Below are positions 2,588 through 45,582 of a stretch of 59,424 nt of DNA, in pieces. Source of the DNA: Candidatus Micrarchaeota archaeon (GTDB taxonomy: Archaea > Micrarchaeota > Micrarchaeia > Micrarchaeales > CABMGC01); the NCBI GenBank assembly GCA_021810455.1, contig JAJZIU010000002.1, positions 1 to 59,424 of the forward strand, given 5' to 3'. Below the pieces are notes generated by a model. The model had not been told where the DNA came from. It ran no database searches and saw only the letters and a list, made by a program, of their open reading frames with translations. Position numbers and translations under genes: made by a program. Numbering within the stretch: position 1 is the first letter of the stretch; every line of letters starts with the position of its first letter.

Positions 2588-2634
2588 ACTATTTTAGAAC
2601 GGTATAAAGATTTTTACTGAGAATTAAAGAGCGG

Positions 2635-3561: not shown

Positions 3562-3650
3562 TGATTTGAAGAATAGTAAAGCTTAAATATCACTTAAATC
3601 ATATTTATATCGGTAATCCGTTTAAAACGGCTATTTGTGAAGGTTTTGAA

Positions 3651-4286: not shown

Positions 4287-4612
4287 AAGATTTCTCCGGT
4301 TATTGCAGTTACGCCTCCTTTCATACTGTAAGATGTTATATTGTGCTTTTGCTTAAGGAACTTTGCAACGTACATTGATGTATTCCCGTGATAGCACACA
4401 AGAACCGAATTCTCAAATCTTTTAAGTTGCTCGCCAGAAGAGCTTAGGAAGTCGGAAGGCTCCGCTTTTATTATATCGCCTTCATGGAGACCGAGCAGTT
4501 CTGATATGTATTCAGCAGGCTCTCGTCCAAGCCAGACAAGCTTTGTATTGTGCTTTTTAGCTATGCTCAGTGATTCTTCAAACGTGCATTCTGAAGGCGC
4601 ATTGTTGTCCAT
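4283..4612 (-). CDS. Rhodanese-domain protein
   Basis: Single-domain rhodanese pattern with active-site loop VLVCYHGNTSMYVA and a C-terminal MKGGVTA. The start is taken at the internal Met (MDNNAPSE), because the longer ORF would run into the upstream gene. Confidence 0.7.
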   Translation of the reverse strand: MDNNAPSECTFEESLSIAKKHNTKLVWLGREPAEYISELLGLHEGDIIKAEPSDFLSSSGEQLKRFENSVLVCYHGNTSMYVAKFLKQKHNITSYSMKGGVTAITGEIF

Positions 4613-4640
4613 TATTATATTATAGACAAAAAGAAATAAA

Positions 4641-5252
4641 TTATGAGCGTACCAGTAACAATGCAACTATATCCTCGAAGAAAAAATGCAATTTTCTCTC
4701 ATCTAATAAAAGAAATGGCATACTCAATATGGTTCTTTTGAGGTTATTGAGATCGGATAATGAACTTGCAATGATTATTGCGTAAGATCCATAATTAAGA
4801 TGCTGCAATGATTGCGTTAAGAATTTTATTGTGAGCTCCACACCGGATAAGCCGCCACTTATTGCAGTGTGCAAGTTCCCATCCTCTTTGGAGGATATGA
4901 GGTACGGGGCATTGAACAGTATGATATCAAAAAACCCTTCGATGTTTGAGAACAGGTCACTGTTTACAAAGGAGCATTTCGATTTGATTTTTTCCCTATT
5001 AACATCAAAATTATGCATTGCCATGGTTATTGCTTCGTTATTCACATCAGCAAACACAACATCCGATACATTATCCTGAGATGCAGCCAGAAGACCGAGG
5101 ACACCGCTGCCAGTACCCATATCAAGAATCTTAATGTCTTTGTTTTTAATCATTTTCATGCATTTTAGAAAGGTTCTGAATGCTAGTTCGGAGTCTTCGC
5201 TGGGTGGATAGACCGTCTCTGATACATCAATCTGAAATCCGAAAAACTCCAT
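4641..5252 (-). CDS. SAM-dependent methyltransferase, HemK/Mtq2-like (N5-glutamine type)
   Basis: VYPPSEDS, SAM-binding loop ILDMGTGSGVLGL, and FNAPYL (an NPPY-type substrate motif). Confidence 0.75.
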   Translation of the reverse strand: MEFFGFQIDVSETVYPPSEDSELAFRTFLKCMKMIKNKDIKILDMGTGSGVLGLLAASQDNVSDVVFADVNNEAITMAMHNFDVNREKIKSKCSFVNSDLFSNIEGFFDIILFNAPYLISSKEDGNLHTAISGGLSGVELTIKFLTQSLQHLNYGSYAIIIASSLSDLNNLKRTILSMPFLLLDERKLHFFFEDIVALLLVRS

Positions 5253-5382
5253 AAAATCATTAAACGCAAAAAAGAAAAGTAAAAGTGTATAAAATAGCTA
5301 TAAACTATTAGAAACAAGATATAAAAACTTTGAACTTTCGAAGCACATTTTTAAACTTTTTGTTTCTGGAAAACTTAATATA

Positions 5383-5991
5383 GTGGTAAATCCATTATTG
5401 TATGATTTTATGATTCATGATGACATGCCAGCTTGGTTGGTCATGGAAGATATACTTATCAGAGTAAAGGAGGGATTGTTGTCAGTTGCTCTAGAAACAC
5501 TTCAAACAGAGATAGACGCAAAGCGTGTTCAGATAAATGGACATTTGATAAAAACTCCTGAAAGTTTAGATGACAAAGAGACCAACCTATTCATAATAAG
5601 CAACATAGTGTCTCGCGAGGGAGAGATAATTGAGATGTACGAACACGAAAAGAAAAAATTAGAATCAGGCAACGTATCTCCAGAGATTGCTTATGGAATC
5701 GATGAACTTAGAAAATTTGCCATGGCAGCAGTACAACTTTCCGTATTAATGAATTACGTAGAGATAACGAACAGATGGATGAATGATGTAAAGGAAGATA
5801 CAAAAAAGGAAAATGTTGAAAGATTGATAATCGATTCAATAAAAAGCGATAGAGAAAGAAGAAACCTTATCGAATTTATCTCGAAAAGCAAAGCGTTGGT
5901 AGACATAGGATCCGTATCGGCACAAGAGAGGGAAATGATGGCTGGTGTGATTAAAAATTTCCCGGAAGGCGAATCAGGGCAAAAATTGTGA
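5383..5991 (+). CDS. Hypothetical protein
   Basis: 202-aa ORF with a GTG start that fills the gap between flanking genes. Helical and charged; no motif recognised. Confidence 0.4.
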   Translation: MVNPLLYDFMIHDDMPAWLVMEDILIRVKEGLLSVALETLQTEIDAKRVQINGHLIKTPESLDDKETNLFIISNIVSREGEIIEMYEHEKKKLESGNVSPEIAYGIDELRKFAMAAVQLSVLMNYVEITNRWMNDVKEDTKKENVERLIIDSIKSDRERRNLIEFISKSKALVDIGSVSAQEREMMAGVIKNFPEGESGQKL

Positions 5992-5996
5992 TGTGT

Positions 5997-6833
5997 ATGA
6001 AGAAGGTAGGAAGACATGTTTCAATGGATAAGGAAATTGACAATACTTTTTTGAATGCGAAAGAGATAGGTTGCACATCCATGCAGGTGTTCATAAGCAG
6101 TCCGAGAAGATGGGATGTTAAAAGGTTTAATCATGAAGAAAAATTAAAATTTATTAGTGATTTGTCAAGATTCAACATTGAACCAGTTGTTGCACATATG
6201 CCATATCTGCCAAATCTTGCATCTCCGGTAAGAGAAATACATAAAAGATCCGTAGAAACCTTAAATGCGATAGCTACTGAGGCTTCGGAATTGGAAATAG
6301 AATACGTTGTTTTACACCTGGGAAGCCATATGGGAGAAGGAAGAGAATTGGGAGTAGGAAATTTCGTTAATGCCATAAATGAGGTCGAAGACTCTCTAAG
6401 AGGTGTTACTCTTTTACTTGAAAATGAAGCAGGGCAAAAGAATAGTATAGGATCAACACCGGAAGAGCTTATTGACATATTTGATAAGATTAATTCCAAG
6501 AAAGTGGGGTTTTGCATAGACACATGCCACATTTTTGCAGCTGGTTATGACATAGGAAATGTTGAAGTTATGGAAAAGATAGATAAAACGATAGACATTA
6601 GGAATGTGCACATTTTCCATTTGAACGATTCAAAGTTCGAGTTAGGATCCAGGTTAGACAGACATGATAACATAGGAAAGGGCAAAATAGGCGCTGAAAG
6701 ATTTAGAAAGTTCTTTGGATATAAAAACGTTTTATCAAAACCCATGATATTAGAAACACCGATAAATGGGATAGATACGAAAGAAGAGTTGGAAGGTGTG
6801 AAACACCTTATGGATAAGTCGTTAAATGATTAA
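5997..6833 (+). CDS. nfo: Endonuclease IV (AP endonuclease family 2)
   Basis: MKKVGRHVS start, HMPYLPNLASP, VLHLGSH, LLENEAGQKNSIG, CIDTCHIFAAGYD, HLNDSK...LGSRLDRHDNIGKGKIG. Confidence 0.9.
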   Translation: MKKVGRHVSMDKEIDNTFLNAKEIGCTSMQVFISSPRRWDVKRFNHEEKLKFISDLSRFNIEPVVAHMPYLPNLASPVREIHKRSVETLNAIATEASELEIEYVVLHLGSHMGEGRELGVGNFVNAINEVEDSLRGVTLLLENEAGQKNSIGSTPEELIDIFDKINSKKVGFCIDTCHIFAAGYDIGNVEVMEKIDKTIDIRNVHIFHLNDSKFELGSRLDRHDNIGKGKIGAERFRKFFGYKNVLSKPMILETPINGIDTKEELEGVKHLMDKSLND

Positions 6834-6843
6834 TGGTGCGCTT

Positions 6844-7761
6844 ATGGAAACTAAAGAACTTGGGAAAACAAAGGAAAAGATACCCGCACTAGGTATGGGT
6901 ACTTGGAAGATAGGCAGCAATGAATCTGAGGGGATAGAAGCGTTGAAAACAGGGATAGATATAGGTATGAGATTTATAGACACGGCAGAGATGTATGGTA
7001 CAGAGGAGATGGTAGGCAAGACAATCGAAGGAATGGATGATATGTTTATAGCAACAAAGGTATCACCTAACCACTTCAGATACGACGATGTAATAAAATC
7101 GTGCAATAGAAGTTTGGAAAAACTTAAAGTGAAGCAGATAGATCTTTACCAACTGCACTGGCCTAATTCAAGCATACCTATAACTGAAACCATGAAGGCC
7201 ATGGAAAAATTGGTGGATCTTGGAAAGATACGGTACATAGGTGTTAGTAATTTTTCTACAAAAGAGATGAAGGACGCTCAGAATGCATTGAAACATGAGG
7301 AGATAGTATCAAATCAGGTCGAGTATAGCGTACTAGTCAGATATGTGGAAAAAGAGATACTGAAATTCTGCCAAGATAACAAAATCACCGTTATAGCGTA
7401 TAGCCCGTTTGGATCTGGAAAACTTTATGGACAGAGATCGAACAGTATGTACGACTTATTGAGAAATGTAGGTAGCAAGTATCAAAAAACTCCAAGTCAG
7501 GTAGCACTAAACTGGCTGATGTCAAAGGACAGAGTGATGGCGATACCTAAGGCAGCGAATATTGCACACATGAAGGAAAATATCGGAGCTTTAGGCTGGA
7601 AGTTGGAAGATGCAGATATGAACAAGATAAATGATTTTTTATCGGATGAGAGACCGATGGTTTGGTCTCTCAATCCTTTGGTGAAAAGAACATCGTCATT
7701 TTGGGCGAGATTGATGGAATATAAAGAAATGGGAAGAAACATGCGCGGAAAAACCAAATAA
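6844..7761 (+). CDS. Aldo/keto reductase
   Basis: LGMGTWKIG, IDTAEMYG, IDLYQLHWP, IGVSNF, NQVEYS. Confidence 0.85.
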   Translation: METKELGKTKEKIPALGMGTWKIGSNESEGIEALKTGIDIGMRFIDTAEMYGTEEMVGKTIEGMDDMFIATKVSPNHFRYDDVIKSCNRSLEKLKVKQIDLYQLHWPNSSIPITETMKAMEKLVDLGKIRYIGVSNFSTKEMKDAQNALKHEEIVSNQVEYSVLVRYVEKEILKFCQDNKITVIAYSPFGSGKLYGQRSNSMYDLLRNVGSKYQKTPSQVALNWLMSKDRVMAIPKAANIAHMKENIGALGWKLEDADMNKINDFLSDERPMVWSLNPLVKRTSSFWARLMEYKEMGRNMRGKTK

Positions 7762-10510: not shown

Positions 10511-10933
10511 TTCCTTGCGTAGAAGCTCCACATTTCTGCTCATTTCGGTAGGACTTATCTGTTTTGAGTGTTCTATTCCTTCATACACGCTGTTGTTATC
10601 CGTTTGAAACTTATCTTTTTCGTTACGCGGTATAAAATGGAAGTGCAGATGGGGAACAGTCATGCCGGAATATTCGCCAACCTGTGCAGTAAAATCATAA
10701 GAATCAGCGTTGTACAGTTTGAATATCACTGGTTTTATCGTATTTAATGTATTGAATATATCAACAACTTCGTTTTTTTCTAATGCAGTTATATCCGCAA
10801 CGTGTCTTCTGGGTATTAATAATGAGTGCCCTGGAAGCACGGGTTTTATATCATAAACCGCCATGGTGCTTTCGGTCAAATAAAACGCATTATTCAATAT
10901 ATCTTTATTGCAAAACGGATCAAACTTCATCAT
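10493..10933 (-). CDS. HIT-family (histidine triad) nucleotide hydrolase/transferase
   Basis: Histidine triad VPHLHFHFIPR and PVLPGHSLLIPRRH. The start overlaps the stop of the upstream protease-like gene by 1 nt. Confidence 0.85.
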   Translation of the reverse strand: MMKFDPFCNKDILNNAFYLTESTMAVYDIKPVLPGHSLLIPRRHVADITALEKNEVVDIFNTLNTIKPVIFKLYNADSYDFTAQVGEYSGMTVPHLHFHFIPRNEKDKFQTDNNSVYEGIEHSKQISPTEMSRNVELLRKELNWSH

Positions 10934-12723
10934 TATCTTCGCCTTTGGGGCTTTTTGCCAATTTTTATCAGAATCGCGATGAGCGTGACCAGTATTGCTA
11001 TTATGACTATCGAGATTACAAGCAGTACATAATAGATTTGCGATATGCTTGTCTGAATCCCAGTTATCTCCCGTGTTACGTTCAGAGTGGAATTTGACTG
11101 GCTGATTATTGATGAGTTAAGTATGAGTTTGTTTGCATTGTTGAGATTTTTGGCAAGGACCGATACAGTGTATCCGGAAGACAAATTTGAAAGGTCGTTA
11201 GGTCTTAAGGATGACTCGTAAACATAGAACATTGCTTCGTTTCCGAATTGAGAAGGCCATACTCCAAACGTTGAATTCTTAGCGTTGGATATTGTCATGT
11301 TTTCAATTTCGCCTACAGTGTAGTTTGACATCAGATCGGGATTGTTCAGAACAGCAGCGTATATCGAACCGTACAACGCAGTACCATAATTGCTGTCATT
11401 ATAACTCTCCATTGCAGTTGAAAGATAGATATTGTTCCCGTAATTCTTTGCGATATTTATGTAGTTAAGCGCAGCGTATTTGACTTGTGGAGATAATTGT
11501 ATGTCTTGACCGCCCATCTGTGATGCAATAGAGTACATTTCGTTTGCGGCACCGCACCATTCTTGAGATGCAGAAGCAACGGATAACCCGTTCAGTATCT
11601 GATCGGTAGTTATGTTTGGTGTGTTTAGAGCCTGTATGTCGGATTGTATGTTATACAGTCCCCATTCCTGTCTCAATTGTCCACCTATAACATACTCGTA
11701 ATTGTTATTTGTCATTTGAGGAGGAGTCAAGGATGAACAGTATGTTGAGATGTTGTCAAGGAGTGCTTTAGTAGACCCAAGATTGTAATATTTTGTATTA
11801 GCCAGTACAAACGCATTTTGATATTGAAGGAATGCCAGATCCGCACCGACGTATAGATATCCTTTTTGTGCCATCTCGGCGTATTTGCTTAGCTGCTGAA
11901 GCATCTGTGCTTTTGTAACACCATAGGCGCTGGATATCGAATTTATTTCTAACGCGGTTTGATTTATAGTATAATTTGTAAGTGTGCCGAAATAACTGAC
12001 ATTGCAAATTGTACATGTTATGTTTGCATAAGGAAGATTATCTAGATTGTACGAAGAGGAGATGTTATACTGCAATGGCAGTATTGGATTGCCATTCGCA
12101 TAAGCATACTTTAGAGCTTGAGAAACGTTAGAAATCTCAACAATCGGCATACCTGACTGAGTTTGAGTTATGAAATAAAGAAGGTTATAAAAACTTCCGG
12201 GAGGGACTGCTGGTACCAATGCGTACTTCATACCCGAGGCCTTAGCAGCCTGCATTTTATCGTAAACGCCACCGATTTCCCCTATATCTCCATTGCTATT
12301 TATTGTACCTGTAACGGTAAAGTCGTTGTATAGTTGCTTGTGTTCTATGCCTGATATTGCAAGTAATGTGAATGCAAGTCCAGCACTTGGGCCGGATACG
12401 CTAACATTAGGGTCGTTTATGTAATAGGAAAAATTATAGTTGCTTGAGTTTATGCCAGTATAAGCTGCAGCGTACGTTACTGCAGACATTGCAGATTGTT
12501 GAGTACTTTGGCCAACAGAATAGGGACCGCTTACCGTAACGTGACCCGAACCAGGAGTTATATTGAGGCTTATTAATGTTAGCGCACCGGTATTTTGAGT
12601 TATTAGAACAGCCGGTGCATGTATTGAAGTGACATACGAGTGCACACTGAATAATGCAAACATTGTTGACAATACGAATATCTTCGTTGAAATTTCCATA
12701 TTTGTAAGATTAGAATAAAACAT
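10933..12723 (-). CDS. Extracellular, membrane-anchored Lon-like (S16) serine peptidase domain protein
   Basis: N-terminal signal/TM. Lon proteolytic-domain pattern VSGPSAGLAFTLLAISG...TGTINSNGDIGEIGGVYDKMQAAKASGMKYALVP. Large Asn/Ser/Thr-rich region with many N-x-S/T sequons, and a C-terminal TM plus basic tail. Confidence 0.6.
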   Translation of the reverse strand: MFYSNLTNMEISTKIFVLSTMFALFSVHSYVTSIHAPAVLITQNTGALTLISLNITPGSGHVTVSGPYSVGQSTQQSAMSAVTYAAAYTGINSSNYNFSYYINDPNVSVSGPSAGLAFTLLAISGIEHKQLYNDFTVTGTINSNGDIGEIGGVYDKMQAAKASGMKYALVPAVPPGSFYNLLYFITQTQSGMPIVEISNVSQALKYAYANGNPILPLQYNISSSYNLDNLPYANITCTICNVSYFGTLTNYTINQTALEINSISSAYGVTKAQMLQQLSKYAEMAQKGYLYVGADLAFLQYQNAFVLANTKYYNLGSTKALLDNISTYCSSLTPPQMTNNNYEYVIGGQLRQEWGLYNIQSDIQALNTPNITTDQILNGLSVASASQEWCGAANEMYSIASQMGGQDIQLSPQVKYAALNYINIAKNYGNNIYLSTAMESYNDSNYGTALYGSIYAAVLNNPDLMSNYTVGEIENMTISNAKNSTFGVWPSQFGNEAMFYVYESSLRPNDLSNLSSGYTVSVLAKNLNNANKLILNSSIISQSNSTLNVTREITGIQTSISQIYYVLLVISIVIIAILVTLIAILIKIGKKPQRRR

Positions 12724-21596: not shown

Positions 21597-21872
21597 AACA
21601 TGGCGAAAGAAGTCGGCATGTCTGACGTTGATACGGTTAAGGCATTGGTAATAAAGAAACATTCAGTGTATGAAGCCCTTATAGGCAAAAAAGCAGAAGA
21701 TTTGTTAGATGATATCAGACAGATTTAGCCGGATATTTGTACTTTTATCTGGTTGGTTTTTTGGAGAGTGATTTTTGAGAGGACAATACCGTAACATTAT
21801 TAAAGTCTCACTTTTAATTATGTATCGACAATTTTTAATTTACAGCGGCCAGATATTTGATAGATGTTATTT

Positions 21873-22196
21873 ATGGAAAAGCCTACATCAATAAAAGAGG
21901 TCCAAGTTGCTGAACAGAAGGCAAAACTTATTTTGGATAATGCTCTGGCTGAAAAGGAATCATCTATTTCAAAGGCTGCGAGTAAAGCGCAGAAGAATAT
22001 CGATGAAAGCATCGAAAATTCAAAGAAAATTCATGAAAAGACACTTAGAGATGCTGAACTGAAACTGATTTCAGAAAGAAAGGAGGCACTATCAAAAGCA
22101 CACAAGGATGCGGCGAAGTTGAAGAAATCTTCGATGAATAAAACAGCATTGGAGAAAGCCGTAAAAATAGCTATAAAAGAAATATTAGGTATGTAA
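21873..22196 (+). CDS. atpH: A-type ATP synthase subunit H
   Basis: Small charged coiled-coil protein directly upstream of atpI. Assigned by position in the conserved archaeal H-I-K-E-C-F-A-B-D order. Confidence 0.55.
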   Translation: MEKPTSIKEVQVAEQKAKLILDNALAEKESSISKAASKAQKNIDESIENSKKIHEKTLRDAELKLISERKEALSKAHKDAAKLKKSSMNKTALEKAVKIAIKEILGM

Positions 22197-30430: not shown

Positions 30431-31545
30431 TATGTAAAAACGCCGTTCTAATGTAACATCATACTCGACAAACACCTTTTTATAACATTTCGTGAAGTTT
30501 TATTACTTGTGAGGAGCCACACAACATACATCTATAAGCAGCCTAGGGTGCAGTTCGATTAGTTGTTTTGTTGGGGTGCAGTCAGTTGGGAGACCTCGGC
30601 GGGTCGCGTTTAATAAAGCACTTCCTCATTTCCTCACCTTATAGATTACTTGCCATAGCTCTCGCCGTAGGGTTCACCTCTCGTAAGTATCCAATACATG
30701 ATCTCTACCAATTTTCCTTGCAACTGAGACTATCGCTCTCTGATGGCCTTTCCTGCGCTTCTTCCTAAGGTAAAGTTTCCTGAATCTTCCTGAACACCTG
30801 ATGGCTGCGTTTGCACCCTGGATCAATATGCGGCGCGGTTGTTTGTCTCAGTGTACAAGTCCGCTATCAAATCTTGTTTCTCCAGACTGATATATTCTTG
30901 GTACAAGGCACGCATAACTTGCCAGTTCCTCGTCCGATGCAACTCTGCCGATATAGTCTATGGTAGACACGATATGTACAGCAGAGTAATAACTTATGCC
31001 TGGAATGGTGTCCAGCAACTGCGCCTCTTTTGAGGCGTTGTATATGCCCCTCTTATTTTTACATCGTAGTCCCCAATATGACCTGTCAAAGTTCCTCAGA
31101 TATGTACGAGTCTATTCCCCTCCGTTGGCGGATAGTGTCACGAATTTTCCTAGTCTTTTCTTCTGGAATGTGGCACTGAGGCACAGTCCCCACCCTGCAA
31201 AGATCCGCAAGTTTCTTTGCATCAGTGCGATCTGTCTTCTTTTCTGAGTCATAAATCAGCTTCATCTTCGAAGGATTTGCGACAACAACATCGGCATTTA
31301 CCTCTCTCAGGCAGTCCAACACAAACATCCCATGCGTCGATGCCACCAAGACGAATTTGTTGCGCTTACCTGTCTTTCCGATGAGTTTACCAACGCCCTC
31401 TTTGGAAGTCGGGAACGTCCTATCAAGCCTTACGTTGCCGTTTCGGTCTGTACCAACGCACACAATTTCGTTCTTGCTTATATCAAGTCCTACATACATT
31501 TCAACACCTTTCTACATTATTATCGTATAAAGGCGTTTTTACATA
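30431..31545 (-). mobile_element. Decayed IS110-family insertion sequence (IS1111-like, with inverted repeats)
   Basis: 14-bp perfect inverted repeat TATGTAAAAACGCC (30431-30444) / GGCGTTTTTACATA (31532-31545). It brackets a disrupted DEDD-type transposase gene and ~230 bp of 3' non-coding sequence. Confidence 0.65.
30674..31499 (-). pseudogene. IS110-family (DEDD) transposase, disrupted
   Basis: Intact N-terminal 137 aa (MYVGLDISKNEIV...). There is a frameshift near 31086-31090, and the linker between the RCKNK and LLDTIPGIS motifs is far shorter than usual. An in-frame TGA lies at 30848-30850, followed by ...PRRILIQGANAAIR...RKGHQRAIVSVARKI, a typical IS110 C-terminus. Confidence 0.75.
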
Positions 31546-31552
31546 CCCTCAG

Positions 31553-32584
31553 TTGCGTATTTGTGGCCAGAACATAGCAACGCTTTTAAGCATTCTTATC
31601 GTATGGAATGTGGATTCCGTGAATACGTACAGAAGAAAAAGTAGCTCTCTCTCTCTCTCTCTGGGAAGGCGCGACGGCAGATATAGCTTAAGACATTCAG
31701 TCTTTTTTCATCAGCATAAATCTACGTCAAGATCGCAAAGCGCAATGGAATACCTGATGACTTATGGATGGTCTATACTAATAATTGCAGTAGTTCTCGG
31801 CGCACTGTCGTTTCTCGGTGTGTTCAATCCTGTTACGTTTGCACCTAAGGCTGCACCTGGAAGTTGCCAGATTGTAAAGAATTCCGAATTAGGAATAAGC
31901 AACCTTGTAGGAAGCTGCAACAACCAAGTGCCGCAGTATGTCGCATCTCTTAACGGTTCAAGCAGCGACATAGTTATAACTAATCCAAACAGCCTTTCTA
32001 GTGATAATCTTACAGTAACTGCGTGGATTGACCCAACTGCAGCATCTACCGGAGGAGGCATAGCAGGCATTGTTAGCTACGGAAGTGGATGCAGCTCTAA
32101 TACGGCAGCATTAATCATGTGGAATGGATACTTGTATAAAGATGGTTGTGGAGACAATTATAATAGTATGTTAAAACCTAGCGCAAATGTTTGGGAATTT
32201 GTTGCCATGGTCGTAAACAGTACTGATACCCGCCTTTATCTAAATTCAGCTTACAATACATCAAATACTGCAGGTACACCTTACATATCTTCATTGGAGA
32301 TAAACATAGGTTGTGATATAGAACCATTAAGCGGCTGTCAGTCTGGAGATATGTTTGGAGGATACGTTGCCGATGTGCAGATATACAATACATCGCTTAC
32401 AAATTCTTCGGTGCAGGAATTGTATCGTGAAGGGTTAGGCGGATTGCCAATAAACCTTCAGAAACTGGTAAATTGGTACCCGCTGAATGGCAATGCCAAT
32501 GACTATTCCGGAAACCAGAATAACGGAGCGCAGACAAAGGTGGTGTACACAAGCAGTTGGTATGGCGGGTATACACAACCGTGA
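31553..32584 (+). CDS. Class III signal (type IV pilin-like) protein with LamG/concanavalin-like domain, paralog A
   Basis: QSAMEYLMTYGWSILIIAVVLGALSFLG pilin-type N-terminus and LamG hallmarks (LTVTAWI, WEFVAMVV, GGYVADVQIYNTSLTNSSVQELYREG). The only in-frame start upstream of the signal is TTG 31553, which gives an atypical 64-aa leader. ATG 31745 would remove the leader. Confidence 0.7.
   Translation: MRICGQNIATLLSILIVWNVDSVNTYRRKSSSLSLSLGRRDGRYSLRHSVFFHQHKSTSRSQSAMEYLMTYGWSILIIAVVLGALSFLGVFNPVTFAPKAAPGSCQIVKNSELGISNLVGSCNNQVPQYVASLNGSSSDIVITNPNSLSSDNLTVTAWIDPTAASTGGGIAGIVSYGSGCSSNTAALIMWNGYLYKDGCGDNYNSMLKPSANVWEFVAMVVNSTDTRLYLNSAYNTSNTAGTPYISSLEINIGCDIEPLSGCQSGDMFGGYVADVQIYNTSLTNSSVQELYREGLGGLPINLQKLVNWYPLNGNANDYSGNQNNGAQTKVVYTSSWYGGYTQP
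31645..31662 (+). repeat. (CT)9 dinucleotide microsatellite
   Basis: Nine uninterrupted CT units read directly from the sequence. The tract lies inside the only ORF extension that gives the first pilin-like gene a start codon. Confidence 0.95.
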
Positions 32585-32589
32585 TATTT

Positions 32590-35082
32590 ATGAAAACTTT
32601 TTCCAAAAATTTCATCAAAAATCAATCCGAGAAACTCTTTAGAAAAGAGTTTCATCAGAAATCGCAATCCGCAATGGAATACCTGATGACTTATGGATGG
32701 TCGATACTTGTAATCGCCATCATGGTTTCCTTTCTCTACTTCTTCGTTCTTGCACCTTCCAATTTAGTTCCTACTCGATGTACGACAAGCAGTGAACTAA
32801 ACTGCCAGGACATAGTGTTCGGTGCAAACCAACTACTTTCAAAAACAGTATTGTTCCTGACAAATGCGCAATTGCATCCAATCCAGAATCCCTCCATTTC
32901 AATTAATGTGAGCGGGGTCGGAGTCGGGAGTGGAACCTGCACCCCTAATTACGTACTTCCCGGAGGAGCAATAATCTGCAACGTCACCTTTACCAGACCG
33001 TTGCATTATGGGTCTTTAGTAGTGGGAAAAATACTGCTTAGTGGAAATGTATGCACGAATTTGGCAACAGGAGGATGCGCAAGCCCTCAATCACAGACTT
33101 ATCAGGGCAGCTTCAGTGCGCACGTAGTACCGATACTCAGCCAGACTGGACTTAACGTGACAATAATTTCGCAAGGGCCGTTCCTTGCCGACGGAAGTTT
33201 GTACAAGATAACTGCAAAGGTAAAACTCCTCGGTTATCCTCTTTCAGGCGCAACGGTCAACTTCACAAACACGGGCAACTGCGGAGTGATTTCGCAGCAG
33301 TACGCAACAACCGACAGCAACGGCAATGCGACTACGTACGTTTCAAGCACGTCGCAATGCAGCGGATCGATAAACGCAACGTTCGTGGGACACTCGAACA
33401 CCACAAAAGTTACGTTCCTGAAACCGGTTTATGCAACATTCAGCATGAACCAACCAAATACTGGTTACACAGTAGTTACTCTCAGTGGAGTTTCATTCTC
33501 CAACTTGCCAATAAAAATCGCATTTGCTCCAAATTCAACTGCATCATATTCATTCCAGTCAACAGTGCAGGACACGGCAAGTGAAAGGTACGCATTCTCA
33601 TCAGTTGTTAACAATTGCAACGGTGCCAATACGCAGTCAGGATCAATTACAATGACAAACAATTGCAGCGTAGTCGCATCCTACACACTGCAATACTACC
33701 TGACTGCATTTGCATCTCCAAGTAGCGGCGGCAGCGTATCCCCTGCAAGCAACTGGTACAACACGGGCACGCTTGTGCAGGAAAATGCATATGCCACGTC
33801 CAATTATCAGTTCAACAACTGGGCAATCAATCCGACTTCCGCAGGAAGCAGCACCACTTCATCAATAACATTGAACGTTTCAACTCCGGTCAGCGCAGAG
33901 GCAGTGTTCCAAACCACCACATCAACATCCACGAGTACAACCACTTCCACTTCAACATCAACTACAAGTACGACAACATCAACAACCACTTCAACATCTA
34001 CGACCACCTCAACTTCCACTTCCACAAGTACAACAATAACTACACTTACCACATCTTCTACAACAACATCCACAACAACTAGTACAAGCACCAGTACTTC
34101 CACCACAACGATATATTATGCAAACAAGGTAATCGACACTATTGCGGTAGGCAACGACCCAGCTGGAGTGGCATTCAGCCCATCAGGCAACCTTGCATAC
34201 GTTGCGAATGAGGGCAGTTCCACAGTAAGTGTAATCAGCGTAGCTACCAATACAGTCATAGACACTATTACAGTACCTCACGGTGTTTACAGGGTAGCAT
34301 TTAATCCTTCAGGCACACTGGCGTACGTTACGAACAATCAAGATGGTCCGTCTGGAAATACAAGTATAATCAACGTAGGCACTAACACAGTCACTGGAGT
34401 TATTACTTCAAACGTAGGGTGGCCGAATGGGTGGACAGGGGGCGTATATCCGAGTGGCGTGGCATTCAATCCCAATGGCACCACAGCATTCATCGCATAT
34501 CATGGAGTCTGCAACGGTGCGGATCGTGGCAATGAAGTGGTTGGAGTGATCAACGTAGCCACAGATGCAATGATAGGCTATATTTCTGGAAATGGATGTC
34601 CAAACAGCATAGCATTCAGCCCCTCAGGCAACCTTGCATACGTTACGCTTGCTTATGCAGGTGGGGCAGTGGAAGTGCTCGCAATCAGTGGAACCACAGT
34701 TACAAATCCGAACAACATTAACATAGGCACCTATCCTACTGACAGTGTGGCATTTAATCCTTCAGGCACACTGGCATACGTTTCTGATGGTGGCAACGCC
34801 ACAGTAAGTGTAATCAATGTAGCTACCAATACAGTAACGAAAAATATCGGCGTAGGAGTCTCTCCGTACGGCATGGCCTTAAACCCCTCTGGCACACTGG
34901 CATACGTCTCAAACTATGTCAACAACACCGTAACGGTAGTTAATGTAACCACAGGTACAATCACGAACATTGTTGGCGTAGGCACCCAGCCGGGTTTCGT
35001 GGCTATAGATCCAACATATAACATTGCATACGTTACGAATTCCAACAGCAATACGGTGAGTGTGATATCAACGTATCCATAA
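32590..35082 (+). CDS. Class III signal multi-domain adhesin-like protein (Ig-like region, Thr/Ser linker, 7-blade YVTN beta-propeller)
   Basis: Leader MKTFSKNF...FHQKSQ followed by SAMEYLMTYGWSILVIAIMV. Big_1-like segment (ATVNFTNTG...TTDSNGNATTYVSS), an InlB-B-repeat-like segment (GGSVSPASNWYNTGTLV...YQFNNWA) and a 66-aa T/S tract. Seven repeats of the P.GVAF(S/N)PSG(N/T)LAYV.N....V(S/T)VI(N/S)V.T type follow. Confidence 0.75.
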   Translation: MKTFSKNFIKNQSEKLFRKEFHQKSQSAMEYLMTYGWSILVIAIMVSFLYFFVLAPSNLVPTRCTTSSELNCQDIVFGANQLLSKTVLFLTNAQLHPIQNPSISINVSGVGVGSGTCTPNYVLPGGAIICNVTFTRPLHYGSLVVGKILLSGNVCTNLATGGCASPQSQTYQGSFSAHVVPILSQTGLNVTIISQGPFLADGSLYKITAKVKLLGYPLSGATVNFTNTGNCGVISQQYATTDSNGNATTYVSSTSQCSGSINATFVGHSNTTKVTFLKPVYATFSMNQPNTGYTVVTLSGVSFSNLPIKIAFAPNSTASYSFQSTVQDTASERYAFSSVVNNCNGANTQSGSITMTNNCSVVASYTLQYYLTAFASPSSGGSVSPASNWYNTGTLVQENAYATSNYQFNNWAINPTSAGSSTTSSITLNVSTPVSAEAVFQTTTSTSTSTTTSTSTSTTSTTTSTTTSTSTTTSTSTSTSTTITTLTTSSTTTSTTTSTSTSTSTTTIYYANKVIDTIAVGNDPAGVAFSPSGNLAYVANEGSSTVSVISVATNTVIDTITVPHGVYRVAFNPSGTLAYVTNNQDGPSGNTSIINVGTNTVTGVITSNVGWPNGWTGGVYPSGVAFNPNGTTAFIAYHGVCNGADRGNEVVGVINVATDAMIGYISGNGCPNSIAFSPSGNLAYVTLAYAGGAVEVLAISGTTVTNPNNINIGTYPTDSVAFNPSGTLAYVSDGGNATVSVINVATNTVTKNIGVGVSPYGMALNPSGTLAYVSNYVNNTVTVVNVTTGTITNIVGVGTQPGFVAIDPTYNIAYVTNSNSNTVSVISTYP
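33913..34110 (+). repeat. Thr/Ser-rich low-complexity coding tract (ACN/TCN/AGY codon repeats)
   Basis: 66 consecutive codons that are almost all Thr or Ser (TTTSTSTSTTTSTSTSTTSTTT...), lying between the N-terminal domains and the propeller of the adhesin. Confidence 0.9.
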
Positions 35083-35111: not shown

Positions 35112-36017
35112 ATGAATAAGTCGCAATCAGCAATGGAATACCTGATGACTTATGGATGGAGTATACTCATTGTTGCAGTGGTATTGGGCGCACTGTCGTT
35201 TCTCGGTGTGTTCAAACCTGTTACGTTTGCGCCCAAAGCTGCACCTGGAAGTTGTCAGATTGTAAAGAATTCCGAATTGGGAATAAGCAACCTTGTAGGA
35301 AGCTGCAACAACCAGGTGCCACAGTATGTTGCATATTTTGATGGCAAAGGAGCATATGCAAATCTTGGAAACAGCCCTACACTTAGTCCCGAAGCAGGTA
35401 CCGAGGGTAAGATGACTTTTTGTATGTGGTATAAAATAAATTCGCTTTCTGGTTATGCAGGCCCGATGCTTAAAGGTGCATATTCTCCAAGCGATGGGAA
35501 TTACTGGGAATATACTCTTGATCAAGGTGGAGGCTCCGAAGGTTTTACTGTGTGGGCTGCAGATGGCGCAACAATCGCATCAGCATCGAGCGATTATTAT
35601 TCATTCAGCTATCTATTAAATCAGTGGGTTTTTGCATGCTTCACCTACGACTACACTGCAGGATCTTCGTATTACTACGTAGGTTATCCAGGGTACTCTG
35701 CACCGATACCTTTCAATTCTCCCGTGTCTGGGATGGCAAGTCAAGGCACTGGATCACTGGTTCTGGGTGCTGGTGAAGGTGGGTATTCAAATGTCAGCAT
35801 ATCTAATGTTCAAATGTATAATACATCATTAAGCAGTTCAGCAATAAATTCCTTATACCAGGAAGGCATTGGAGGAGTACCCATAGATTCGCAGAATTTG
35901 GTAGGCTGGTGGCCGCTGAATGGAAATGCTAACGATTATTCAGGGAACAGTAATGATGGGATCGCCACTAATGTGATATTCACGAGCAATTGGTATGGTG
36001 GATACACGCAACCGTGA
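35112..36017 (+). CDS. Class III signal (pilin-like) LamG-domain protein, paralog C
   Basis: MNKSQ leader plus SAMEYLMTYGWSILIVAVVLGALSFLG. The first ~70 aa are nearly identical to paralog A. The LamG core is divergent (MTFCMWYK, WVFACFTY, ISNVQMYNTSLSSSAINSLYQEG) and the C-terminal WWPLNGNANDYSGN...WYGGYTQP is shared. Confidence 0.8.
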   Translation: MNKSQSAMEYLMTYGWSILIVAVVLGALSFLGVFKPVTFAPKAAPGSCQIVKNSELGISNLVGSCNNQVPQYVAYFDGKGAYANLGNSPTLSPEAGTEGKMTFCMWYKINSLSGYAGPMLKGAYSPSDGNYWEYTLDQGGGSEGFTVWAADGATIASASSDYYSFSYLLNQWVFACFTYDYTAGSSYYYVGYPGYSAPIPFNSPVSGMASQGTGSLVLGAGEGGYSNVSISNVQMYNTSLSSSAINSLYQEGIGGVPIDSQNLVGWWPLNGNANDYSGNSNDGIATNVIFTSNWYGGYTQP

Positions 36018-36021
36018 TAGA

Positions 36022-36885
36022 ATGAAATCGCAAAGTGCAATGGAGTATTTGATGACCTATGGATGGTCGATACTCATTATCGCAGTAGTGCTCGGTGCGC
36101 TTTCATTTCTCGGTATATTCAATCCTTTGACATTTGCACCTAAGGCAACTGCCGGCAATTGCCAAGTGATAAGGAACGGTGAACTTGGAATAAGCAATCT
36201 GGAAGGTAGTTGCAACAACCAAGTGCCGCAGTATGTCGCACGATTCATAGGTTATAACAACATCCCGACAACAGATGCGCAGAAACTGACTTCATTTACA
36301 ATGTTGGACTGGTTTTATGATAACTCTGGAAACCAGCTCGGAAGTGTGCAGCAATCGAAATGTGGAGTGACAGTAGGACCTGCATGGAGCTGGTGTAGCG
36401 GAGGATGGGCTTGTTTCGATCCATGCTCATGCTACCTAAGCTCGACAGGACAGGCAATAGGATGCAATGGCTATGCACAGGTAAGTGGATTGCCAAATAC
36501 GTGGAATATGGTGGCTGTGAGCGTTGCGGTGAATGGCACCGTTTTTATGTACGACTTTGTAAATGGAAAGGAGTACTCGAATTCATATTCTTTCGGACAA
36601 GGAATATACGCATCTTCGGGAAGCGTGAATATTGGAGATTGGCCCGGATGGTTGTTTGATGGTATGGTTTCTAATGTGCAGATATACAATACCTCACTGA
36701 GTAATGTTGCGATAGAAGCCATGTACAACGAAGGCATAGGAGGAGCTCCAGTAGATTTACAGAATCTCGTAGGATGGTGGCCACTGAATGGGAACGTTAA
36801 TGATTATTCAAATAGTGGTAATTCAGGAATGACTGAAAATCTGACATTTACAAGCAGTTGGTATGGTGGATACACGCAACCGTGA
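36022..36885 (+). CDS. Class III signal (pilin-like) LamG-domain protein, paralog D (Cys-rich core)
   Basis: MKSQ leader plus SAMEYLMTYGWSILIIAVVLGALSFLG. The core is divergent and Cys-rich (CGVTVGPAWSWCSGGWACFDPCSCY). MVSNVQIYNTSLSNVAIEAMYNEG and the WWPLNGNVNDYS...WYGGYTQP C-terminus are present. Confidence 0.8.
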   Translation: MKSQSAMEYLMTYGWSILIIAVVLGALSFLGIFNPLTFAPKATAGNCQVIRNGELGISNLEGSCNNQVPQYVARFIGYNNIPTTDAQKLTSFTMLDWFYDNSGNQLGSVQQSKCGVTVGPAWSWCSGGWACFDPCSCYLSSTGQAIGCNGYAQVSGLPNTWNMVAVSVAVNGTVFMYDFVNGKEYSNSYSFGQGIYASSGSVNIGDWPGWLFDGMVSNVQIYNTSLSNVAIEAMYNEGIGGAPVDLQNLVGWWPLNGNVNDYSNSGNSGMTENLTFTSSWYGGYTQP

Positions 36886-36889
36886 TAGA

Positions 36890-38080
36890 ATGAGACGCAT
36901 TGGCATAGTAATCTGGATGGCATTTTTAACGTGTATTTTCCTTTTTATTTGTCAGAGGCATCTGAATGCCACAGTAATACATGTGCCTCAAGTAAATGTA
37001 TCATTAAACAGTTCCATTTCAAATGTCACGGAAGGGATTATAATACCGCTGTATTTTTACCCAAATCAGGAATGGGCTAAGCTCGAAAATTATACTCCGG
37101 GATTATATGCAGTGATAATCAATCCGGACAGCGGACCAGGTACGAATTTCGATCCTGTTTACAATAAATGGATAAATGATTTGCGTAGTAGCGGAATAGA
37201 GGTTTTAGGATACGTGCCGACGTTCTTCAATGATGGTACATTGACACTGAATGAAGATGAAGGATACATAAATGATTATTATAAGTGGTATAATGTAAGT
37301 GGAATATTCTTAGATCAGGTTGCTTCGAATTGCAATGAATCCAACATAAAGTTTTACGGAACCCTTTACAATTACATAAAAGGAAATCAAATCGCAGGAA
37401 ATATGGTGTTTATGGATCCTGGTGTTGGTGTCGGCCAATGTTACAGGAATATCTCAGATATAATAAACATATTTGAAAACAATTATTCGGTTTTTGTTAA
37501 AGAAAATATGACGTATGTGAAAACAAGTTCGTATAACCCAAACCATTTATCAATGATAGTGTATGATGTACCAAACAGTACAAACATGAAACACGTAATA
37601 AACATTTCAAGGAATTTAGGGATAGGTTACGTGTTTATAACAAATAGATCAGGAAGTAATCCGTTTGATTCATTGCCTGAATATATAAAGAATGAAACCG
37701 ATTCGGTAAATCCGATCAGAGTTTCATTATACAAACAAGAATCTGATAATAACGGAAATCTTACAATAACTTTGAAATTTAAAGCTACAGGAGGCAATGG
37801 AGGATACTCGTTTTTATTTGGCAGATTACCAGCATTCTGTGATGTGTTTAATGAATCACAGATTGAGTGCACTCCTAAAGAAGCAGGTAACTTTACAATT
37901 TTAATGAAAGTTAACGATAGCTTAGGATTCGAAAGGGATTTTTATTATAGTGTAAATATGACAGAGGCAAAAATCAAAAACACGTATTGGACCACATATG
38001 ATACGGGATACGTACTTTTTTTAATCATAATGATCATCGTGATAAGTTACTTTGTGAGATTTAGGATTAAACACAAATAA
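36890..38080 (+). CDS. Membrane-anchored spherulin-4 family (Sph3/GH135-like) protein with C-terminal Ig-like domain
   Basis: N-terminal signal/TM, then IIIPLYFYPNQEWAKL...AVIINPDSGPG...GIEVLGYVPTFF, which matches my recollection of the spherulation-specific family 4 signature. GGNGGYSF Ig-like segment and a C-terminal TM plus basic tail. The start sits in the same 35-nt junction sequence as paralog D. Confidence 0.6.
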   Translation: MRRIGIVIWMAFLTCIFLFICQRHLNATVIHVPQVNVSLNSSISNVTEGIIIPLYFYPNQEWAKLENYTPGLYAVIINPDSGPGTNFDPVYNKWINDLRSSGIEVLGYVPTFFNDGTLTLNEDEGYINDYYKWYNVSGIFLDQVASNCNESNIKFYGTLYNYIKGNQIAGNMVFMDPGVGVGQCYRNISDIINIFENNYSVFVKENMTYVKTSSYNPNHLSMIVYDVPNSTNMKHVINISRNLGIGYVFITNRSGSNPFDSLPEYIKNETDSVNPIRVSLYKQESDNNGNLTITLKFKATGGNGGYSFLFGRLPAFCDVFNESQIECTPKEAGNFTILMKVNDSLGFERDFYYSVNMTEAKIKNTYWTTYDTGYVLFLIIMIIVISYFVRFRIKHK

Positions 38081-43218: not shown

Positions 43219-45522
43219 ATGATAGAGCTACTCGAGCTCCAGAACTGGAAAACGCACGGTTCCAGTACGCTCTCGTTTTCAAAAGGCACAAACATATTAT
43301 TAGGCCAGATGGGCGCAGGAAAGAGTTCTGTGATGGATGCGATATCGTTTGCCCTTTTTGGCACATTTCCGGCAATAAAAAATCGGAGAATGTCGATAAA
43401 TGATGTGATAAGCAATAGACCTGTGCCAAAAGACAGAGCTGTTGTTAGGTTAAAATTTAGATTAGGGAATGACATTTATACAGTTGAAAGAGAGGTTGCA
43501 CTGAACAACTCTCCAAAGGCAAAATTTGAAAAAAATGGAGTTCATGTGCAATCACAACCACAGAGAGTTACCGAGGAAATAGAGAGGTTATTGAAGATAG
43601 ATTATGATCTATTTTCCAGAGTGGTTTATTCTGAACAAAATAGATTGGATTACTTCTTGGAACTTAAATCAGCAGATAGAAAAAAACAGATAGATAACCT
43701 CCTAGGATTGGATAAATTTGCAGTGGCCCAGGATAATGTAACGAGCCTCATAAATAGAATAAAAAGTATGATAGAAGAGGAAGAAAAGGCTCTGGAAGGC
43801 ATAGACATGAAGGAGTTAGAGCTTCAGCTTGCTAATTCGAAAGAATCACTTGAAAAAATTGTAACAGAATCCAAGAAACTTAAGAAAGAACATGACGAAT
43901 CAGTAAATAAAAGGGAAATGATAGAATCGAGATACAAGAAAGCCAAGGATCTTCTAAGTAAAAAAATTGCATTGTCTAAGGAAATAGTAGAAGATGAAGG
44001 TAAAATCAGCACATTGAATGATGAAATAAAAAAGATAGATAAATTAGAATTGGGCAGTGAAGAGGAACTCAGTAGAAAATTTGCAGAGTTTAATCTAAAG
44101 AATGTAGAGTTAAAAAAAGAAGAAAACATAGTGACAGACCGTATGCAAGAGGTCCAGTTACGCATGGGAAAACTACAGAATCAGATATCTGACCTTGAAA
44201 GAAAAAAGACCACTAAAGAAAAACTATTAGCAGACATGAAGGACATCGATAAAGCAGAATTTTCAAAGCGTTTTGACGACTCAAAATTAAAGTATGAAGA
44301 ATTAGAAAAAGAACTCGCGTTGGTAAAAGTCACGAAAAAAGAAAATGAGAAATGGATCACCGAATTGGAAAAGCATATAAGCAAATGTCCGGTATGTGAA
44401 AGGAATTTGGATAGTGATACAAAAGAGGGCATACTTGGAGATAAGAGGAAACACGTTTTGGAACTATCGAATAAGGAGAATGAAATTGAAGTTGAGAGAC
44501 GACAACTTAAGAGTATTCTGAATGGCGTTGAAGAAAAACTCTCACAGATAAAGATTGCCGAAGAAAAATTGTTAGAGTATGGAGATGTGGAAAAAAGGCT
44601 TGAAGAAGCTGGAAAACTTGAAAAAAAATCTTCAGAGGAATTAATGGAAATAAAAATTAAAAGAGATGAAATAAGTAAGAAGAGAGAAGAACAGACTAGG
44701 GAAATATTATCTATAAAATCGTCATTGGATCAGATTACGCGTAAGAATTCGTACATTAAAAATGTAAGAGAGATTTTTGCTCTTGTAGCAGAAAAAAAGA
44801 GTAAGCTTGGCGAGATAAAGATTGATGACGAAGAAATAGATAAAATGCAAAAAGAACTTGTGGATATAAATTCTCTAATAAGCAGAAATCTGGCGATCCT
44901 GGAATCTAGTGAAAGGGAACGTAGAGAAAAAGAATCACGAATAGAAGAAAAATCAAAAGAAATAGATAGAGTGAGGAAACTTATTGAGAGGATAAAATCA
45001 AGAAATAAAACTGTTGACGGACTTACAAAATTCAAAAACGCACTGCAGGAAACGCAGGTAGTACTTAGAAATAAACTAGTTAACTCTGTTAATGAAGTTA
45101 TGCAAGACATATGGCCGGATCTTTATCCGTACGGAGATTATATAGGAATAAATCTTCAGGCTACAGAAGGAGATTATGTACTCAGGGTTAAAACTGATAA
45201 GAATGGGGAGGGATGGAATGACGTAGATTCGATAGCAAGCGGGGGAGAAAGGAGCACAGCGTGCTTAACTATGAGAATAGCGTTTGCTATGGTTCTAACA
45301 CCTAATCTAAAGTGGATAATATTGGATGAACCAACACACAACATAGACCAACAGGGGATAACTAAATTGGTAAGACTTTTCAGCGAGGTGCTTCCTGAGA
45401 TAATAGAACAGATATTCATAATAACTCATGACGAGCAGCTAAAACAGATAACGAACGGCAAGATTTACATGTTAAAACGGAATAAGACAGAAAGTGGAGC
45501 TACAGAAATAGATGAAGTATGA
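43219..45522 (+). CDS. rad50: Rad50-type SMC-like ATPase
   Basis: Walker A GQMGAGKSSVMDAISFALFG, long coiled coil with zinc hook KCPVCERNL, signature SGGERSTACL, Walker B/D-loop IILDEPTHNIDQ. Confidence 0.85.
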   Translation: MIELLELQNWKTHGSSTLSFSKGTNILLGQMGAGKSSVMDAISFALFGTFPAIKNRRMSINDVISNRPVPKDRAVVRLKFRLGNDIYTVEREVALNNSPKAKFEKNGVHVQSQPQRVTEEIERLLKIDYDLFSRVVYSEQNRLDYFLELKSADRKKQIDNLLGLDKFAVAQDNVTSLINRIKSMIEEEEKALEGIDMKELELQLANSKESLEKIVTESKKLKKEHDESVNKREMIESRYKKAKDLLSKKIALSKEIVEDEGKISTLNDEIKKIDKLELGSEEELSRKFAEFNLKNVELKKEENIVTDRMQEVQLRMGKLQNQISDLERKKTTKEKLLADMKDIDKAEFSKRFDDSKLKYEELEKELALVKVTKKENEKWITELEKHISKCPVCERNLDSDTKEGILGDKRKHVLELSNKENEIEVERRQLKSILNGVEEKLSQIKIAEEKLLEYGDVEKRLEEAGKLEKKSSEELMEIKIKRDEISKKREEQTREILSIKSSLDQITRKNSYIKNVREIFALVAEKKSKLGEIKIDDEEIDKMQKELVDINSLISRNLAILESSERERREKESRIEEKSKEIDRVRKLIERIKSRNKTVDGLTKFKNALQETQVVLRNKLVNSVNEVMQDIWPDLYPYGDYIGINLQATEGDYVLRVKTDKNGEGWNDVDSIASGGERSTACLTMRIAFAMVLTPNLKWIILDEPTHNIDQQGITKLVRLFSEVLPEIIEQIFIITHDEQLKQITNGKIYMLKRNKTESGATEIDEV

Positions 45523-45582
45523 CATTCTAAAACGGAATAAGACAGAAAGTGGAGCTACAGAAATAGATGAAGTATGACATTC
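45473..45582. repeat. Perfect 55-bp tandem direct duplication (2 copies)
   Basis: TAAAACGGAATAAGACAGAAAGTGGAGCTACAGAAATAGATGAAGTATGACATTC occurs at 45473-45527 and again at 45528-45582. Copy 1 contains the last 16 codons and the stop of rad50. Copy 2 ends inside the ftsZ stop codon. Confidence 0.95.

Follow-up and report, generated by a model that had tools for sequence, protein, structure and literature searches.

A tightly packed array of five genes on one strand, separated by gaps of 4–29 nt, lies at 31.5–38.1 kb in a 59,424 nt stretch of DNA from Candidatus Micrarchaeota archaeon, a DPANN archaeon (contig JAJZIU010000002.1 of assembly GCA_021810455.1; the whole stretch is called the window below). 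Its genes are named here A, B, C and D, followed by a gene of the Spherulin4 family. At a probability of about 0.7, the array is operon-like and encodes surface proteins of a 'modular pilin' type. Three of these, A, C and D, have conserved ends around unalignable LamG cores, and this arrangement is a protein-level property of the whole family, not a peculiarity of this locus. Purifying selection accounts for most of the end conservation. The conserved blocks, above all the 5′ one, also undergo short-patch gene conversion with paralogues, whether neighbours or members of other arrays in the same genome. The locus represents an ordinary multigene surface-protein family with concerted evolution, and not a new kind of system. 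The same locus was found in several metagenome-assembled genomes (MAGs) and assemblies of a Candidatus Micrarchaeota population, and all related loci come from Micrarchaeota MAGs.

An earlier note on this DNA had described the genes as cassettes, with conserved ends that could act as substrate for homologous recombination and so shuffle or replace the cores between them. Its description of the gene architecture was confirmed by a sliding-window comparison on a codon alignment of A, C and D, in which identity was not uniform but fell into three zones: a 5′ block of ~215 nt, a core, and a 3′ block of ~225 nt. In the 5′ block (~73 codons) nucleotide identity is 82–97% between A and C, 65–83% between A and D and 62–78% between C and D, and amino acid identity is 55–100% per 20-codon window, rising to 84–96% across the first 45 codons. 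The claim that the first ~200 nt are near-identical holds for A and C at the nucleotide level (89.9% over 218 nt) and is overstated for D. The cores are barely alignable, as had been noted, with 5–43% nucleotide identity and a BLASTP score of 0 bits for the core of C against A and D. The conserved 3′ ends extend over ~75 codons with 47–80% nucleotide identity.

Past their leaders, all four proteins A–D start with QSAMEYLMTYGWSIL and continue into a hydrophobic stretch, a pattern of the archaeal class III signal/type IV pilin-like type, with Q at +1 and E at +5. The N-terminus of C reads MNKS followed by QSAMEYLMTYGWSILIVAVVLGALSF and that of D reads MKS followed by QSAMEYL; in the LamG genes the signal has the form K, R or N, then S or N, then QSAMEYL. 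Such signals consist of a short charged leader, a cleavage-type motif and then ~20 hydrophobic residues that include a conserved polar or acidic position near +5, and these elements are present here. The QSAMEYL-type motif is near-invariant among 115 homologues. Gene B is the fourth to carry this N-terminus, but its body is a beta-propeller. The Pfam model PF13385 (Laminin_G_3) matches A and C above its cut-off of 27.6 bits, with D slightly below it.

An AlphaFold2 model of C, built on the 115 homologues, has a predicted local distance difference test score (pLDDT) of 88.5. It shows an N-terminal helix at residues 7–30 as assigned by DSSP (pLDDT ~90), a less confident linker, a beta-sandwich at 73–236, a helix at 242–251, and further strands in the tail at pLDDT 81–92. 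Foldseek searches with this model returned LamG-like domains at probability 1.0, with dimethylformamidase (6lve), PAPP-A and BACOVA_03559 (4dqa) as the top PDB matches and pentraxin, the neurexin LNS domain and agrin ranked lower. Each LamG gene encodes a class-III-type signal and hydrophobic helix, then a linker containing two invariant cysteines, then a LamG/concanavalin-like jelly-roll, and lastly a conserved C-terminal framework and tail; it is the central 150 residues of the jelly-roll that are hypervariable.

The case for a pilin-like protein is built on the motif, on the hydrophobic stretch behind it and on the predicted helix, and several observations weigh against this assignment. The leaders of A and B are at least 30 amino acids long, which is atypical for a class III signal, and A has no ATG nearby. 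The N-terminal 74–78 residues matched no class III signal or archaeal pilin model in Pfam, even at E ≤ 10; NCBIfam gave no match for C, and no pilin or class III signal model matching the N-terminus. Neither the window nor the flanks of the fetched loci contain a pilus ATPase, platform protein or prepilin peptidase. The packing of the tail into the jelly-roll is predicted from pLDDT and secondary structure only. Another possible role for the tail (LVGWWPLNGNANDYSGN...), as the first strand of the LamG domain in a circular permutation, was rejected, as searches of PDB and NCBIfam with the tail or a permuted construct gave nothing useful.

The same architecture extends far beyond the window. A protein search returned 2,392 homologues at E ≤ 1e-10, which bear only generic names, and a genome scan gave at least 551 matches, as single genes or as tandem arrays of 2–5; among the fetched loci, a single genome has as many as 14 copies. 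In the alignment of 115 homologues, positions 1–80 and 231–301 are conserved (majority-residue fraction 0.54–0.93), whereas positions 81–230 are variable (0.19–0.50). C48 and C65 are invariant, and the motif LVGWWPLNGNANDYSGN falls in the conserved part. One homologue with two LamG units (P0055) repeats the tail behind each of them, indicating that the tail belongs to the preceding LamG domain module. In protein terms, one conserved end would comprise the linker and the helix used for assembly or anchoring, the other the tail and the framework of the jelly-roll, and the core would be the part of the domain that varies.

Synonymous sites point to purifying selection on the ends. Across 113 family genes, codons for an identical residue differ at a fraction of 0.61 between genomes and of 0.56 between paralogues at separate loci of one genome. 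Within the window, the C–D 5′ block (0.54) and the A–C 3′ block (0.57) lie near this ceiling. Likewise, the closest full-length relative of C, gene X2 in array L088, shares 83% of its amino acids, with divergence that is even along the gene (synonymous codon differences ~0.5–0.6; amino acid identity 72–96% per 25-codon window). Since the pattern is family-wide, and most paralogue pairs are near synonymous saturation, conservation of the ends does not need recombination.

If this were the whole explanation, the array would consist of old tandem duplicates with purifying selection on their ends and fast divergence of their cores, and clustered polymorphisms would be artefacts of assembling mixed strains or paralogues. 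The family-wide conservation of the ends and the near-saturated synonymous sites of C–D and of the A–C 3′ block agree with such an account, as does the fact that the variation data all come from assemblies. It is nevertheless very improbable, because three observations that do not depend on polymorphisms argue for exchange. Firstly, the 5′ blocks of A and C differ at 16 of 66 synonymous codons, compared with 36 of 60 for C and X2 (Fisher p = 6e-5), and this low divergence occurs despite unalignable cores. Secondly, the 5′ block of A is a mosaic (permutation P = 5e-4): nt 1–63, to ~31798, resemble the paralogue Z5 from a different array of a MAG that carries the window locus (GCA_027366495.1), and nt 72–213, from ~31807, resemble C, with the informative sites running 121111121111 before the breakpoint and 2222122222... 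after it. Thirdly, in 19 of 22 family genes the 5′ block is nearer to those of same-genome paralogues with unrelated cores than to that of the cross-genome orthologue of its own core (identity 0.86 versus 0.73; Wilcoxon p = 2e-4). Within a genome, therefore, 5′ blocks undergo concerted evolution, a pattern that suits occasional conversion together with selection for a block that works with one peptidase and one assembly system. The equivalent comparison of the 3′ block gave no bias toward same-genome paralogues. A further similarity between genes with unrelated cores is seen at the 3′ end, where the final ~62 nt of C, through the downstream ATGAAA, differ from the end of gene X1 (also in L088) by 2 mismatches.

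Variation within the population has the same character. About 20 contigs from several samples, found by exact-protein anchors (13 with protein C, 21 with AtpD), were compared across the locus, and variation in the array consists mostly of short multi-nucleotide tracts in the conserved blocks (Table 1). The most distinctive is a tract in A at 31768–31798, carried by contigs L002 and L003, one edge of which coincides with the mosaic breakpoint (31798–31807). The neighbouring tract at 31924/31927 is found with it in all four combinations among the contigs. For the account without recombination this tract is difficult: it matches no paralogue in the window, and so is not a chimera assembled from within the array; it is present in two assemblies that differ elsewhere; and a TCT to AGC switch together with seven other synonymous changes in 31 nt, in an otherwise identical 1.6 kb, cannot be explained by independent mutation.

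Conversion between paralogues is the preferred reading of these tracts, and there are points that weigh against it. A search of all fetched loci, among them two further arrays of this species, found no donor for 31768–31798; the nearest sequences differ from it at 5 of 36 nt. Import from the orthologue of a diverged strain is an alternative to a paralogue donor. All of the population variation, moreover, was read from metagenome contigs and not from reads.

The earlier note had also reported a 35 nt sequence, TGGTATGGTGGATACACGCAACCGTGATAGAATGA, repeated at two gene junctions. It is present exactly twice, at 35991–36025 and 36859–36893, and the identity reaches one base further to the left, giving an exact repeat of 36 nt. 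As described, it runs from the end of one gene into the start of the next, covering the last eight codons (WYGGYTQP), the TGA stop, a 4 nt spacer (TAGA) and ATGA. The gene following the second copy is the Spherulin4-family gene, which is not a paralogue. The 36 nt run lies within a 224 nt alignment of the C and D 3′ ends that is 75% identical and in which the second-longest exact run is 9 nt; when match positions were shuffled, a run of this length had P = 6e-4. The second copy is polymorphic, with G to A changes at 36854, 36865 and 36866 in L001 and L009, of which the last two fall inside it. No meaningful inverted repeats were found at the junctions.

The exact repeat is probably a short local conversion tract laid on a functionally constrained junction, with selection for the stop–4 nt–start arrangement reinforcing it. 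A competing explanation, which is possible but would be the less expected of the two, is that selection at the nucleotide level for translational coupling or re-initiation keeps all 36 nt identical, with the ribosome-binding sequence of the downstream gene lying within the last codons of the upstream gene and no conversion needed. Several features suit coupling. The arrangement of a stop, 4–5 nt and an ATG recurs at all four junctions of this array and in many others, and identical or near-identical stop–spacer–start junctions occur also in L022, L079, L088 and L065/L084. The junction sequence CCG TGA T places GTGAT 5–9 nt ahead of the next ATG; judging by archaeal 16S 3′ ends in general, this could serve as a Shine–Dalgarno-like core, and the point is weakened by the lack of a 16S gene in the window. 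The junction before the unrelated Spherulin4 gene is likewise identical, and the same 29 nt (TGGTATGGTGGATACACGCAACCGTGATA) form the end of gene X1 in L088, even though other genes of L088 are only ~75% identical in nucleotide sequence to those of the window. On the other hand, a ribosome-binding constraint would be expected over ~6–10 nt and not 36, and RNA structure at the junctions is unremarkable (z −1.3 to +1.6). The end of gene A has four different synonymous codons and another spacer, yet B follows just as closely; together with the two changes inside the second copy in L001 and L009, this argues against selection as the sole cause of identity over all 36 nt.

If the conserved ends mediated exchange of whole cores, then rearranged arrays or altered cores might be expected in the population. 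The contigs that reach the array are all collinear, with no insertion or deletion, copy-number variant or chimeric core at the contig level, and the predicted shuffling and copy-number variants were not seen. The cores are close to invariant: across the ~20 contigs, single-nucleotide polymorphisms number none in A, two in C (both synonymous) and none in D, and no core was found swapped at this array. The proposal that core replacement gives surface or ligand variation thus finds no support at the contig level. As for the ends being a recombination substrate, the part that stands is conversion within the flanks, seen in the A–C deficit, the Z5/C mosaic and the strain tracts, while replacement of the cores is unsupported.

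These data bear directly on a more dynamic interpretation, programmed cassette switching, in which recombination through the flanks would often exchange or shuffle entire LamG cores, or bring leaders and promoters together with other cores, to give rapid surface or ligand variation. Conversion tracts and mosaicism in the flanks would be consistent with it, as would the many contigs that terminate within the conserved blocks; such ends are expected from repeats and strain bubbles, and are not evidence of rearrangement. Against it are the collinearity of ~20 contigs across the whole array and the presence in the cores of only the two synonymous changes. Nor is there an arrangement of one expressed locus with truncated, promoterless silent copies: B, C and D are full length, each with its own ATG and leader, and A is a full-length open reading frame (ORF) with a long leader in the same tight, same-strand array. 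The variable regions do not vary between strains at the contig level in the way of pilE/pilS. No recombinase is present other than a degraded IS110 remnant, and the near-saturation of most flank pairs indicates that exchange is infrequent. Switching of this kind is judged improbable.

Two other types of variation-generating element were considered and rejected. An integron or shufflon is not indicated, since there are no inverted repeats at the borders and no intact recombinase, the sole trace of a mobile element being the frameshifted IS110 remnant. A diversity-generating retroelement is not indicated either, as the cores have no template/variable repeat pair; a reverse transcriptase was not systematically searched for.

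Over longer times, shuffling of cores is a possibility, and other arrays provide some hints of it. At least two more arrays of the family are found in the species of the window (MAGs GCA_027366495.1 and GCA_027334405.1). In GCA_027366495.1, locus L102 has five family genes in tandem (2415–6888) beside dnaJ-dnaK-grpE and one more at 10921–11760, and a pair adjoins IMPDH in L104/L105:5001–6852; the genome therefore holds at least a dozen copies. In relatives, C-type cores occur in other contexts, namely in another array in L088 and upstream of the V-ATPase operon in L090, and one 39-residue leader heads different cores (W, P0040, P0052) at different loci. Both observations also count in favour of cassette switching.

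The clearest candidate for a larger rearrangement involves LamG gene W, which lies 9.6 kb upstream of the array X1-X2-X3 in L088 and L103. In L101, a single 5.9 kb contig of another MAG, the upstream region, leader and first ~90 nt of gene V1 are identical to X1, and the remainder is identical to W and is followed by the downstream genes of W (L101:1935–2840 compared with L088:9100–9389 and L103:39–992). This structure points to an unequal crossover inside the 5′ block, between paralogues 9.6 kb apart, leaving either a duplication junction or a circle. Through such a crossover, a set of essential genes (L21e, TBP, Rpb7, Spt4 and GluRS) would be duplicated or end up on a circle. The exactly shared stretch at the crossover is only ~25–30 nt, making a k=141 assembly chimera unlikely; as evidence for cassette switching, L101 is still one metagenome contig of a sister locus, in which an assembly error is possible. 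V1 and the shared leader are the best hints that, on an evolutionary scale, the conserved blocks can give rise to larger rearrangements. The X array (L088, L089, L103 and L101) may belong to the same genome as the window, since the two have equal GC (0.39), come from the same samples and have no overlapping single-copy genes; against this, X-array contigs are absent from the MAGs that carry the window locus.

An extension of these hints, and an unlikely one, is a recombination-driven adhesin repertoire in Micrarchaeota, with the homogenised, genome-specific 5′ blocks of a dozen or more dispersed LamG genes serving as portable crossover sites that re-assort promoters and leaders with cores. If it were true, the intervening DNA would be duplicated or deleted, the X1::W chimera of L101 and the polymorphic tracts would be its footprints, and the outcome would be population-level variation in host binding, an archaeal analogue of bacterial pilin and adhesin antigenic variation.

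With short-patch conversion on conserved blocks as the preferred reading, a working model for the proteins can be proposed. The N-terminal helix would drive insertion into the membrane, processing by a prepilin peptidase, and incorporation into a type IV pilus-like structure or at its tip. The different LamG cores may then confer different ligand specificities, probably for host glycans. The 5′ blocks would stay genome-specific because every subunit must fit one peptidase and one assembly system.

Table 1. Features of the LamG gene array and its repeats, in window coordinates
Feature	Position	Strand	Description
Gene A	31553..32584	+	Pilin-like LamG protein; mature part from Q (31736); Laminin_G_3 1.8e-15, 57.8 bits
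5′ conserved block of A	31733..31948	+	Signal-cleavage region, hydrophobic helix, two-cysteine linker
Polymorphic tract in A	31768..31798	+	10 nt changes, all synonymous, including a TCT>AGC serine switch; L002, L003
Other tracts in conserved blocks	31924/31927 (A); 36222-36228; 36854/36865/36866		
3′ block of A	32369-32584		Homologous to that of C
Gene B	32590..35082	+	Pilin-like N-terminus, Ser/Thr-rich linker, YVTN beta-propeller; NCBIfam TIGR02276 beta_rpt_yvtn 2.5e-35
Gene C	35112..36017	+	Pilin-like LamG protein, MNKS followed by QSAMEYL...; Pfam Laminin_G_3 1.9e-10, 41.5 bits
3′ conserved block of C	35802..36017	+	YNTSLS...LYQEGIGG...LVGWWPLNGNANDYSGN...WYGGYTQP
Junction repeat copy 1	35990..36025	+	End of C, TGA, TAGA, ATGA of D
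Gene D	36022..36885	+	Pilin-like LamG protein, MKS followed by QSAMEYL...; Laminin_G_3 25.7 bits (cut-off 27.6); same N and C blocks
3′ block of D	36670-36885		Homologous to that of C
Junction repeat copy 2	36858..36893	+	End of D, TGA, TAGA, ATGA of Spherulin4-family gene
Spherulin4-family gene	36890..38080	+	Hydrophobic N-terminus; Pfam PF12138 3e-38; starts 4 nt past D

The ORF of gene A opens at a TTG at 31553, and its long leader includes a perfect (CT)9 at 31645–31662, in frame and translated as SLSLSL. This resembles a slipped-strand contingency tract; no variation in its length was seen in any population contig covering the position. B and two homologues, P0040 and P0052, also have long leaders, to which part of this one (FHQHKS...) is similar. 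In gene B, six clustered nucleotide changes at 34849–34862 in L002, L005 and L008 change three codons within one blade of the beta-propeller (G to F, V to N and S to N), and no donor for them was found within the window. The Spherulin4-family (PF12138) protein, whose gene shares the exact junction with the array, also has a C-terminal membrane segment, and may be a glycan-active partner of the lectin-like proteins.

The IS110-family transposase remnant lies between atpD and gene A (30674–31499, minus strand) in all contigs reaching that point, and consists of an ORF for a 137-amino-acid DEDD domain and two short downstream fragments in other frames. Around 21700–22170, between a DUF460 gene and V-ATPase subunit I, gene calls are strain-dependent, with DUF460 products of 61–158 amino acids; in L090, from a related species, a C-type LamG gene occupies the matching site. 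Elsewhere, a perfect tandem duplication of 55 nt (45473–45582) spans the convergent 3′ ends of a Rad50-like gene and an FtsZ gene, and is present as a single copy in L001–L003 and L007 and as two copies in L004 and L005. Some contigs have one or two gaps at some point along their alignment with the window. A scan for sigma-70-type promoters and terminators gave fewer sites than shuffled sequence, a sigma-70 model being uninformative for an archaeon.

DPANN archaea, Micrarchaeota among them, live attached to archaeal hosts, and little is known of how these hosts are recognised. A very large pilin-like family that spans the phylum, carries hypervariable LamG heads and numbers a dozen or more copies in a ~1 Mb genome is a strong candidate for the recognition layer. 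The N-terminal assembly module, kept in concert within each genome, and the ligand-facing core, stable in the population and very different between paralogues, provide targets for proteomics, electron cryo-tomography and glycan-binding studies in those few Micrarchaeota that are in culture. The cassette-like look of the locus should not be taken as evidence for active domain swapping.

Gene-conversion-based surface variation is known from Neisseria pilE/pilS, Borrelia vlsE and Mycoplasma MgPar. The array resembles these systems in having multiple paralogues, conserved segments flanking variable ones, and short-tract conversion. It differs in that its copies are complete, separately translatable and operon-like, its tracts fall in the conserved blocks, and its cores are invariant in the sampled population, apart from the two synonymous changes in C. 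Concerted evolution of conserved segments is common in multigene surface families. The adhesion pilins PilA1-6 of Haloferax volcanii reportedly have an identical hydrophobic N-terminal domain, and this parallels the genome-specific 5′ blocks described here, in that paralogous pilins keep a near-identical N-terminus while the rest diverges. The PilA pilins belong to another sequence family, are small, and have neither a LamG module nor tandem arrays with exact junctions.

Within the same phylum, Golyshina et al. (2017, PMC5498576) report an expansion of LamG-like genes in the cultured 'Ca. Mancarchaeum acidiphilum' Mia14; they propose that the genes act in host interaction, and some of the copies are associated with type IV pilus loci. 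As described there, it is likewise an expansion of jelly-roll, LamG-like proteins, and the description includes no class-III-type N-terminus, conserved end blocks, tandem junctions or recombination between copies. The known proteins closest in kind are the 'modular pilins', in which a lectin module is joined to a pilin N-terminus; they are well documented among bacterial type IV pilins with a PF13385 module such as PilC of Streptococcus sanguinis (Raynaud et al. 2021, PMC8179133). Both have an N-terminal class III signal and helix, a short linker, and a concanavalin-A-like/LamG (PF13385) module presumed to bind ligands. In the archaeal proteins the N-terminus is of the QSAMEYL type and not the bacterial N-methylation motif, and in place of a separate pilin globular module there is only a ~40-residue, two-cysteine linker between helix and LamG domain. 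The archaeal family has, in addition, a conserved C-terminal tail, and many copies per genome in tandem arrays.

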